Shown here: piece by piece, positions 24,624-24,890 of the stretch
Numbering within the stretch: the stretch's first letter is position 1
Layout: each line of letters begins with the position of its first letter
NCBI RefSeq assembly: GCF_058153355.1
Contig: NZ_CM177019.1
Length of the DNA stretch: 64,000 bases
Direction: 5' to 3' (one strand)
Notes under the pieces: model-generated
What the model saw: only the letters and a program-made list of their open reading frames with translations
Told to the model about the DNA's origin: nothing
Database searches by the model: none
Made by a program: the position numbers and the translations under genes

Positions 24624-24627
<4 letters not shown>

Positions 24628-24890
24628 AAGAGTTTTTATTTTTATTTCACTCCACGGTCGGCGTCATACAAACCCGCAAGGCGTTGCAGGCAGCGGGCAT
24701 GACTTTTCGCGTCAGCGATATTCCCCGTGATTTACGCGGCGGCTGCGGGTTATGCATTTGGCTGACCTGTCTGCCCGGCGAGGAAATACAATGGGTGATC
24801 CCTGGGCAGACCGAAGCGATATATTGCCAGCAGGGCAGCAACTGGCAGTGCGTGGTGCATTACGACTCAGAAGCGTCAACCAGGCAATAA
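24624..24890 (+). CDS. Small conserved protein, possibly DUF3343-like, translationally coupled to yjiL
   Basis: 88-aa ORF whose ATG overlaps the yjiL stop (ATGA at 24624-24627); contains CGLC motif. Confidence 0.5.

Follow-up and report, generated by a model that had tools for sequence, protein, structure and literature searches.

YtiA, a DUF3343 protein encoded with the double-cubane cluster protein YjiM and the activase YjiL in Escherichia coli, as a possible sulfur/selenium carrier

The window analyzed here, a stretch of 64,000 nucleotides (nt) from contig NZ_CM177019.1 of NCBI RefSeq assembly GCF_058153355.1, carries ytiA (24624-24890, plus strand), a gene for a small cysteine-containing protein of the DUF3343 family. 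We observed that ytiA is the conserved third and last cistron of a yjiM-yjiL-ytiA operon, in which yjiM encodes a double-cubane cluster protein (DCCP) and yjiL an ATP-dependent activase, and that, across unrelated bacteria, DUF3343 genes recur beside DCCP genes. The gene call itself is nothing new, since RefSeq already lists ytiA for K-12 and for almost all Escherichia coli genomes. Its value lies in a testable link between an orphan carrier family (DUF3343) and an orphan reductase family (DCCP), and we consider the functional link between ytiA and the DCCP a useful lead. The link bears on the natural substrate of DCCPs and on DUF3343 as a "Se/S carrier" family without a tested function, and it makes of a vague annotation a hypothesis that can be tested in an organism amenable to genetics. 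The idea of a three-protein module had been put forward in an earlier model-made reading of the window (hereafter the original prediction). It was right in outline, whereas the annotation status, the enzyme class and the CxxC motif that went with it were wrong.

The ytiA gene in the yjiM-yjiL-ytiA operon

The reading frame at 24624-24890 starts with ATG and encodes a protein of 88 amino acids (aa) and about 9.5 kDa, whose sequence includes RGGCGLCIW, with Cys41 encoded at 24744-24746 and Cys44 at 24753-24755. The TGA stop codon of yjiL (24625-24627) shares bases with the ytiA start codon, and both the 88-aa frame and the ATGA overlap were found as originally described. Since chance open reading frames (ORFs) of 40-110 aa occur by the dozen in other frames of the region, and since a 4-nt overlap is the most frequent junction type among operon genes, neither ORF length nor overlap is by itself evidence for ytiA. 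The operon and the parts of ytiA are as follows.

22699..23850, plus strand: yjiM, first cistron, double-cubane [8Fe-9S] cluster protein (DCCP), 383 aa; from Pfam, NCBIfam and a PDB match, with coordinates transferred from the RefSeq annotation of locus L002
23860..24627, plus strand: yjiL, second cistron, ATP-dependent activase/reductase of the DCCP reductase (DCCP-R) type, 255 aa; from Pfam, TIGR00241 and RefSeq
24624..24627, plus strand: yjiL/ytiA start/stop overlap ATGA; read from the sequence
24624..24890, plus strand: ytiA, third cistron, DUF3343 / putative Se/S carrier protein, 88-aa allele; from the ORF call, PF11823, the RefSeq coding sequence (CDS), the ratio of nonsynonymous to synonymous substitution rates (dN/dS) and AlphaFold2
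24633..24800, plus strand: Pfam Se_S_carrier domain, residues 4-59; hmmscan envelope against profile positions 2-57 of 69
24723..24749, plus strand: invariant motif Pro34-x6-Cys41-Gly42 in the strand 2-3 loop, with the candidate cargo-binding Cys; from a 17-sequence alignment (A3) and the structural model

We scanned one genome per species with a YtiA alignment (A4) as the query and recovered 53 loci, all of them in Enterobacterales. They belonged to Escherichia, Citrobacter, Klebsiella, Raoultella, Kluyvera, Kosakonia, Phytobacter, Atlantibacter, Trabulsiella, Yokenella, Superficieibacter, Intestinirhabdus and Hafnia, and to Enterobacter-labelled isolates. The order yjiM-yjiL-ytiA was identical in every locus with sufficient upstream DNA, and the genes flanking the trio varied from genus to genus. 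An overlap between yjiL and ytiA was found at 56 of 57 scorable junctions, by 4 nt (ATGA or GTGA) in 43 cases, by 1 nt in 10 and by a longer stretch (-8 or -11) in three; the last junction had a gap of 18 nt. Because this geometry is conserved, we infer that translation of ytiA is coupled to that of yjiL. When the search was started from YjiM, the trio was also recovered in Cedecea and [Enterobacter] lignolyticus. Distant metagenomic relatives (33-40% identity) carry the same HGD-D / BcrAD_BadFG / Se_S_carrier trio between unrelated flanks. The matches listed in protein searches with YjiM and with a profile of distant members (120) were all close enterobacterial relatives. Altogether, the proposed module is kept together, amid unrelated flanks, in more than 50 Enterobacterales species and in distant metagenomic relatives. 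The frame itself, on whose conservation in other strains the original prediction had staked its proposal, is intact in 50 Enterobacterales loci. The only member of the YtiA subfamily seen without an upstream yjiL was P0142 (L067:1046-1297; 40% identical in A4), whose 1.4-kb contig has a pseudouridine synthase gene, and not an activase gene, ahead of it.

The Nei-Gojobori dN/dS values of 50 intact orthologues, which are rough since dS is near saturation, were 0.25 for ytiA, 0.10 for yjiL and 0.05 for yjiM; within ytiA, residues 1-60 gave 0.20 and the tail gave 0.50. Purifying selection on ytiA is clear.

The original prediction named no annotated gene at this place in K-12. A check of K-12 W3110 in RefSeq showed that ytiA is annotated there, as an 85-aa DUF3343 domain-containing protein (WP_000657675.1). 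Across 24500-25000 (501 bases compared), the window and E. coli 2020CK-00188 are 100% identical, and RefSeq has an 88-aa CDS at the ytiA position of this strain (WP_000657672.1); newer records label the product "putative Se/S carrier protein". With a ytiA-only query, matches were found in 5385 of 5426 complete E. coli genomes. Since both the gene and its PF11823 assignment are in public annotation, ytiA was already known and is not a missed gene. The gene name "ytiA" in the searchable literature nearly always denotes a ribosomal protein paralogue of Bacillus subtilis.

The two partner genes were assigned by profile searches. YjiM scored 408.6 bits against Pfam HGD-D and 530.9 bits against NCBIfam NF040772 (double-cubane-cluster anaerobic reductase, cut-off 350), compared with 93.6 bits for HadC (cut-off 700) and 23.1 bits for HadB (cut-off 750). 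The operon holds a single HGD-D gene, with no alpha-subunit partner for YjiM. A classical 2-hydroxyacyl-CoA dehydratase was therefore rejected on both grounds. The operon had been described as radical-dehydratase-like; the superfamily behind this description (HGD-D and BcrAD_BadFG) is correct, but the dehydratase class has to give way to the NF040772 double-cubane reductases. YjiM also matched PDB 6ENO, the DCCP of Carboxydothermus hydrogenoformans, at E=7.6e-75, in an alignment that pairs the cluster cysteines (40, 59, 78, 93, 108, 273, 302, 304 and 335 in YjiM) with cysteines of 6ENO. The literal seven-cysteine spacing formula that has been published is not matched by YjiM (observed spacings 18, 18, 29, 164, 30 and 30), while a relaxed pattern fits. 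YjiL scored 259 bits against Pfam BcrAD_BadFG and 364.3 bits against TIGR00241 (acyl-CoA dehydratase activase, cut-off 125.4). The three genes are tightly packed, with 9 nt between yjiM and yjiL and -4 nt between yjiL and ytiA. The physiological substrate of DCCPs is not known (PMC7317905), and Jeoung et al. described YjiM/YjiL as a two-protein system of unknown substrate, without mention of ytiA (PMC7317905). The yjiL-mdtM cluster is cited in PMC8801401 as implicated in the uptake of proline-rich antimicrobial peptides.

A resemblance of the 88-aa product to DUF3343 proteins had been suggested, with Pfam as the means of checking it. YtiA matched PF11823 (Se_S_carrier, formerly DUF3343) with 48.4 bits against a cut-off of 25 (E=6.4e-13), and none of the NCBIfam models matched it. 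YtiA thus has the traits of PF11823 that could be assessed here, namely the match to the hidden Markov model (HMM), a small stand-alone size and one conserved Cys. With phmmer against 1.8 billion representatives, we obtained 41 cluster representatives (50% identity) at E<=1e-3; this search reached the edge of a narrow YtiA subfamily and not the wider DUF3343 family. The conserved Cys of DUF3343 led Lin et al. (2015) to propose the family as a Se/S chaperone (PMC5322559); in the literature searched, sulfur or selenium binding or transfer is demonstrated for no PF11823 member. As described there, PF11823 proteins share with YtiA a length of 80-100 aa and a single invariant Cys followed by Gly, and their genes adjoin sulfur/selenium genes in many bacteria (PMC5322559). 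The YtiA subfamily differs from the wider family in being narrow and tied to a DCCP and activase only, without a desulfurase, YedF or YedE neighbour, and in its additional non-conserved cysteines.

In A3, the 17-sequence alignment, the invariant columns are limited to F8, P34, C41 and G42. The C41-G42 pair is also invariant in the 50-locus alignment and in the metagenomic subfamilies, and the P-x-P...CG pattern recurs in other DUF3343 subfamilies. By contrast, Cys44 is replaced by Ser in Hafnia and in the relatives P0139 and P0142, and by Gly in P0155; the equivalent position in other DUF3343 subfamilies is Ser, Ala or Cys. CGLC, which had been singled out as a motif, is therefore not a conserved CxxC, its invariant part being Cys41-Gly42. 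C44, C49, C68 and C76 are the non-conserved extra cysteines.

The confident AlphaFold2 model of YtiA (predicted local distance difference test score, pLDDT, 89.7) comprises a strand (2-8), a helix (11-23), a strand (28-32), a loop (33-42) with Cys41, a strand (43-49), a short helix and a beta-hairpin (63-79). The fold predicted in this way is a small alpha-beta sandwich of the ferredoxin-like / PII-like kind. The best Foldseek matches were PII/GlnK (probability up to 0.99, E of about 0.02, TM score of about 0.5), and UreE and CutA-type metallochaperone domains were among the weak ones. A sequence search of the PDB with YtiA gave chance-level matches only (LolB, CD55) and no solved homologue. 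Since the fold matches are only generically ferredoxin-like or PII-like, no function can be transferred to YtiA from structure. A thioredoxin-like CxxC oxidoreductase was rejected for YtiA because Cys44 is not conserved and the fold is ferredoxin-/PII-like.

DUF3343 genes beside DCCP loci in metagenomes

We scanned metagenome contigs with a DNA back-translation of the DCCP motif GETTCDGKKK, which selected 120 loci, and typed their ORFs with in-house HMMs. A DCCP-like gene was present in 117 of the 120 loci, and 25 loci contained DUF3343 ORFs (28 in total). All 28 shared the strand of the nearest DCCP or activase gene, and the distance to it was at most 110 nt in 24 cases. Ten representatives checked against Pfam were confirmed, at 56-81 bits. 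After clustering of the DCCPs at 80% identity, 15 of 80 clusters adjoined a DUF3343 gene, as did 12 of the 47 (26%) with at least 600 nt sequenced on each side. Since DUF3343 was always present in the Enterobacterales loci examined and in about 19-26% of the diverse DCCP clusters, it is a frequent but optional partner. Three DUF3343 subfamilies in three gene orders were distinguished, all linked to DCCP/activase genes:

Arrangement 1, the YtiA type: DCCP (383 aa)-activase-DUF3343
Arrangement 2: a DUF3343 protein of 84-99 aa, nearly always with a C-terminal Cys, encoded directly after a long DCCP (420-457 aa)
Arrangement 3: an "AGCG[LF]AW" DUF3343 protein of 78-88 aa, usually encoded just upstream of an activase-DCCP (381-385 aa) pair

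These recurring arrangements indicate that the DUF3343-DCCP partnership is frequent, ancient and independent of gene order, and it is not universal. A restriction of DUF3343 to short open-channel "class II" DCCPs such as YjiM was rejected, because one subfamily directly follows DCCPs of 420-457 aa.

Members of the C-terminal-Cys subfamily (...R-D-K-Y-C) were seen at L071, L102, L106, L111, L130, L140, L144, L147, L148, L157, L167, L172 and other loci, in most of which a long DCCP gene lies directly upstream; the DCCP of L148 has 382 aa. We considered whether proteins ending in ...YC were truncated Cys-selenocysteine (Sec) selenoproteins. This was rejected, as their stop codons are mixed (TAA, TAG and TGA) and no conserved read-through was seen, and the mixed stops indicate that the terminal Cys is genuine. 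Two loci, L089 (9167-9721, minus strand) and L124 (3761-4315, minus strand), encode 184-aa proteins in which an N-terminal DUF3343 domain is fused to a Cys-containing, uncharacterised half of about 95 aa. The domain of the L089 protein, the one scanned, scored 81 bits in Pfam. Each fusion gene lies about 1.4 kb from a DCCP gene and adjoins a TusA-like gene.

To characterize the surroundings of these genes, the 96 other ORFs around 21 non-enterobacterial DUF3343-positive loci were scanned against Pfam. The most frequent neighbour families were as follows.

Aminotran_5 (cysteine desulfurase / selenocysteine lyase type): 8 members
TusA: 5 members
Sulf_transp (YedE): 3 members
AIRS / AIRS_C (SelD-like): 2 members

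Aminotran_5-like genes were found in 9 of 21 DUF3343-positive DCCP loci compared with 2 of 91 DUF3343-negative ones (Fisher p=2e-6), and TusA/YedF-like genes in 8 of 21 compared with 4 of 91 (Fisher p=1e-4), p-values that are approximate because the metagenomic loci are not fully independent. DUF3343-positive DCCP clusters are thus sulfur/selenium trafficking clusters. On one gut metagenome contig (L065:74-513), a 69-aa TusA gene overlaps a 77-aa DUF3343 gene by 4 nt; the geometry is that of the yjiL-ytiA junction, with a sulfur carrier as the upstream partner.

In the literature searched, the link between DUF3343 and an activase/HGD pair was met in a single place. A STRING table for Slackia connects DUF3343 to an activase and an HGD subunit, listed uncommented together with YedF and a Sec lyase (PMC5322559). 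According to Haft, DCCPs show a statistical association with a selenium-dependent system (bioRxiv 10.1101/2022.07.06.499078). Within this search, which was incomplete, we found no discussion of DUF3343 as a recurrent third component of DCCP systems in sulfur/selenium clusters, and this role seems not to have been spelled out before.

Possible roles of YtiA in the YjiM/YjiL system

The conserved Cys, the operon and the gene neighbourhoods suggest a model, to which we give about an even chance of being right, in which YtiA serves as a Cys41-based sulfur/selenium carrier or as the substrate-presenting subunit of a three-protein, ATP-driven YjiM/YjiL reductase. YjiM is the double-cubane [8Fe-9S] cluster reductase and YjiL the ATP-hydrolysing activase that injects electrons into it. 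YtiA would probably be made by termination-reinitiation at the ATGA, tying its output to that of YjiL, and would bind the YjiM/YjiL reductase. Cys41 would covalently carry a sulfur or selenium species, for example a persulfide or a selenosulfide, supplied in E. coli by an enzyme whose gene lies elsewhere, a cysteine desulfurase or a selenocysteine lyase. YtiA would then present this cargo to the YjiM cluster, or collect it there, and the cluster, energised by YjiL and ATP, would reduce or transfer the cargo at low potential.

By analogy, YtiA may work like the TusA/YedF carriers, which are small, possess one essential Cys and accept and pass on a desulfurase-derived persulfide; TusA/YedF-type genes share clusters with DUF3343 genes in anaerobes. 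As for membership in that family, YtiA gave no PF01206 match at E<=1 and lacks a CPxP motif, and no TusA fold was among the matches listed in either YtiA fold search. YtiA was therefore rejected as a TusA/SirA-family member. A bolder version of the carrier model, which we regard as possible and hold tentatively, extends it to other DUF3343 proteins. DUF3343 proteins such as YtiA would be the physiological substrate carriers of a subset of DCCPs, and the YjiM/YjiL-type machine would use ATP to reduce persulfide or perselenide bound to a protein, or some other chalcogen or metalloid adduct on a Cys, releasing or transferring sulfide or selenide at very low potential. If true, this would provide a concrete biological role for DCCPs, which have lacked a known natural substrate ever since they were discovered, and the first mechanism for the DUF3343 family.

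Comparison with characterized systems helps to situate the proposal. The DCCP and DCCP-R of C. hydrogenoformans (6ENO, 7YYL; PMC7317905, PMC9351452) resemble YjiM and YjiL, with the same cognate ATPase type and adjacent genes, whereas they are described as two components and the E. coli operon has a fixed third, small Cys protein; YjiM also lacks the N-terminal extension of about 36 residues of the C. hydrogenoformans DCCP. The 2-hydroxyacyl-CoA dehydratases (HgdAB/HgdC, HadBC/HadI) have the HGD-D and BcrAD_BadFG superfamily and ATP-driven electron injection in common with YjiM/YjiL. Unlike HgdAB and HadBC, YjiM has no alpha-subunit partner and falls in the double-cubane clade. We know of no small Cys protein that is part of a 2-hydroxyacyl-CoA dehydratase system.

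Several points weigh against a carrier role. With its reductase as the only partner, the C. hydrogenoformans DCCP acts in vitro on small molecules that include acetylene (PMC7317905). A DUF3343 neighbour is missing from about three quarters of DCCP loci, which implies that the enzyme class does not depend on the small protein. In the RefSeq annotation, no desulfurase, TusA or YedE gene adjoins the E. coli locus, and the statistics for these neighbours elsewhere suffer from the partial dependence of the loci mentioned above. Finally, judged by dN/dS, the rate at which YtiA evolves exceeds that of its partners two- to fivefold.

The last of these points would fit an accessory role, and YtiA could instead be a maturation or repair factor that delivers sulfide (e.g. 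the bridging ninth sulfide) or inserts a cluster, either for the [8Fe-9S] cluster of YjiM or for the O2-labile [4Fe-4S] cluster of the YjiL dimer. The DCCP/activase linkage supports this equally, neighbouring cysteine desulfurase and TusA genes are also expected for Fe-S assembly systems, and metallochaperone domains of the UreE and CutA type are among the weak fold matches. We nevertheless consider it unlikely. Most DCCP loci manage without a DUF3343 gene, and the C. hydrogenoformans DCCP was produced and characterized without mention of such a factor (PMC7317905); DUF3343 genes are also described in the company of TusA, YedF and Sec lyase with no mention of a DCCP (PMC5322559), and a single Cys per protein would be little for a cluster scaffold. 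The fold also raises the possibility of a PII-like regulatory subunit, whose loop Cys would sense redox state or oxygen and gate the YjiL ATPase or access to the YjiM active site. PII/GlnK, CutA, DUF2179 and the UreE C-domain share a beta-alpha-beta / beta-alpha-beta type of sandwich with a functional strand 2-3 loop, as in the YtiA model; PII/GlnK proteins are the best Foldseek matches, the invariant Cys sits in a loop topologically equivalent to the PII T-loop, and a tight coupling of YtiA expression to that of YjiL would fit. We judge such a regulator quite improbable.

A dithiol-disulfide protein that uses the CxxC (CGLC) to pass electrons to or from YjiM/YjiL would come near the "redox module" of the original prediction, and C41-G-L-C44 is indeed present in E. 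coli and most Enterobacteriaceae orthologues. This appears very unlikely, given the replacements of Cys44 in Hafnia, P0139, P0142 and P0155 described above, the Ser or Ala at this position in most other DCCP-linked DUF3343 subfamilies and a predicted fold that is not thioredoxin-like. Moreover, activases of the HgdC type receive their electrons from ferredoxin or flavodoxin. Already close to refuted is the idea that ytiA is a chance or decaying frame, or a hitch-hiker without functional tie to yjiM-yjiL. Chance ORFs of similar length are plentiful in the region, the last 20 or so residues are poorly conserved (dN/dS 0.50) and a recombination breakpoint lies inside the 3' end. Against this stand the PF11823 score, well over the cut-off, the purifying selection on residues 1-60 (dN/dS 0.20) with a frame intact in 50 loci, the adjacency and overlap kept while the flanks change, and the presence, in bacteria unrelated to one another, of independent DUF3343 subfamilies beside DCCP genes.

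The 3' end of ytiA and the neighbourhood of the operon

Two further features of the locus were recorded.

22510..22539, plus strand: sigma-70-like promoter match upstream of yjiM, candidate operon promoter; TTGGCG-18-TATATT, 9/12 consensus matches
24835..24890, plus strand: variable C-terminal tail of ytiA, end of K-12 homology; from megablast and K-12 alignments

The promoter match is weak, since promoter-like sites in the region are no more numerous than expected from shuffled sequence. In a terminator scan, no intrinsic terminator-like site was detected 3' of ytiA.

Megablast matches of the K-12 type end at base 211 of the ytiA query, which corresponds to position 24834 of the window, and from there on, over roughly 18 final codons, the allele departs from that of K-12. 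A boundary between K-12-like and island-associated DNA thus lies inside the ytiA 3' end (about 24800-24890) and gives rise to two alleles, of 88 aa here and 85 aa in K-12. With its dN/dS of 0.50, this tail is also under less constraint than any other part of YtiA. The 88-aa allele with its downstream arrangement was found in 639 of 5426 complete E. coli genomes. In K-12, the spacer between yjiK and yjiL was listed by Shimada et al. (2014) as the site of a constitutive RpoD promoter of yjiK, on a gene map without ytiA (PMC3946193); given this map, the yjiK promoter could fall inside the coding sequence of ytiA or directly downstream of it.

Between ytiA and yjiK, the window has a low-GC segment (24835-27540, GC 0.28-0.42 compared with about 0.53 in the flanks). 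It contains a 705-aa pentapeptide-repeat gene (25198-27315, plus strand), which RefSeq records of O157:H7 annotate as the type III secretion system effector EspX6. K-12 has no EspX6-like gene, and yjiK follows ytiA after 64 nt there. Inside the EspX6-like gene, a perfect 9-bp tandem repeat, AACATCTGC, extends over 26685-26755 (7.9 copies, 100% matches) and encodes (SAT)n; it is followed at 26762-26829 by degenerate repeats of 9, 18 and 27 bp. This repeat region could be variable in length.

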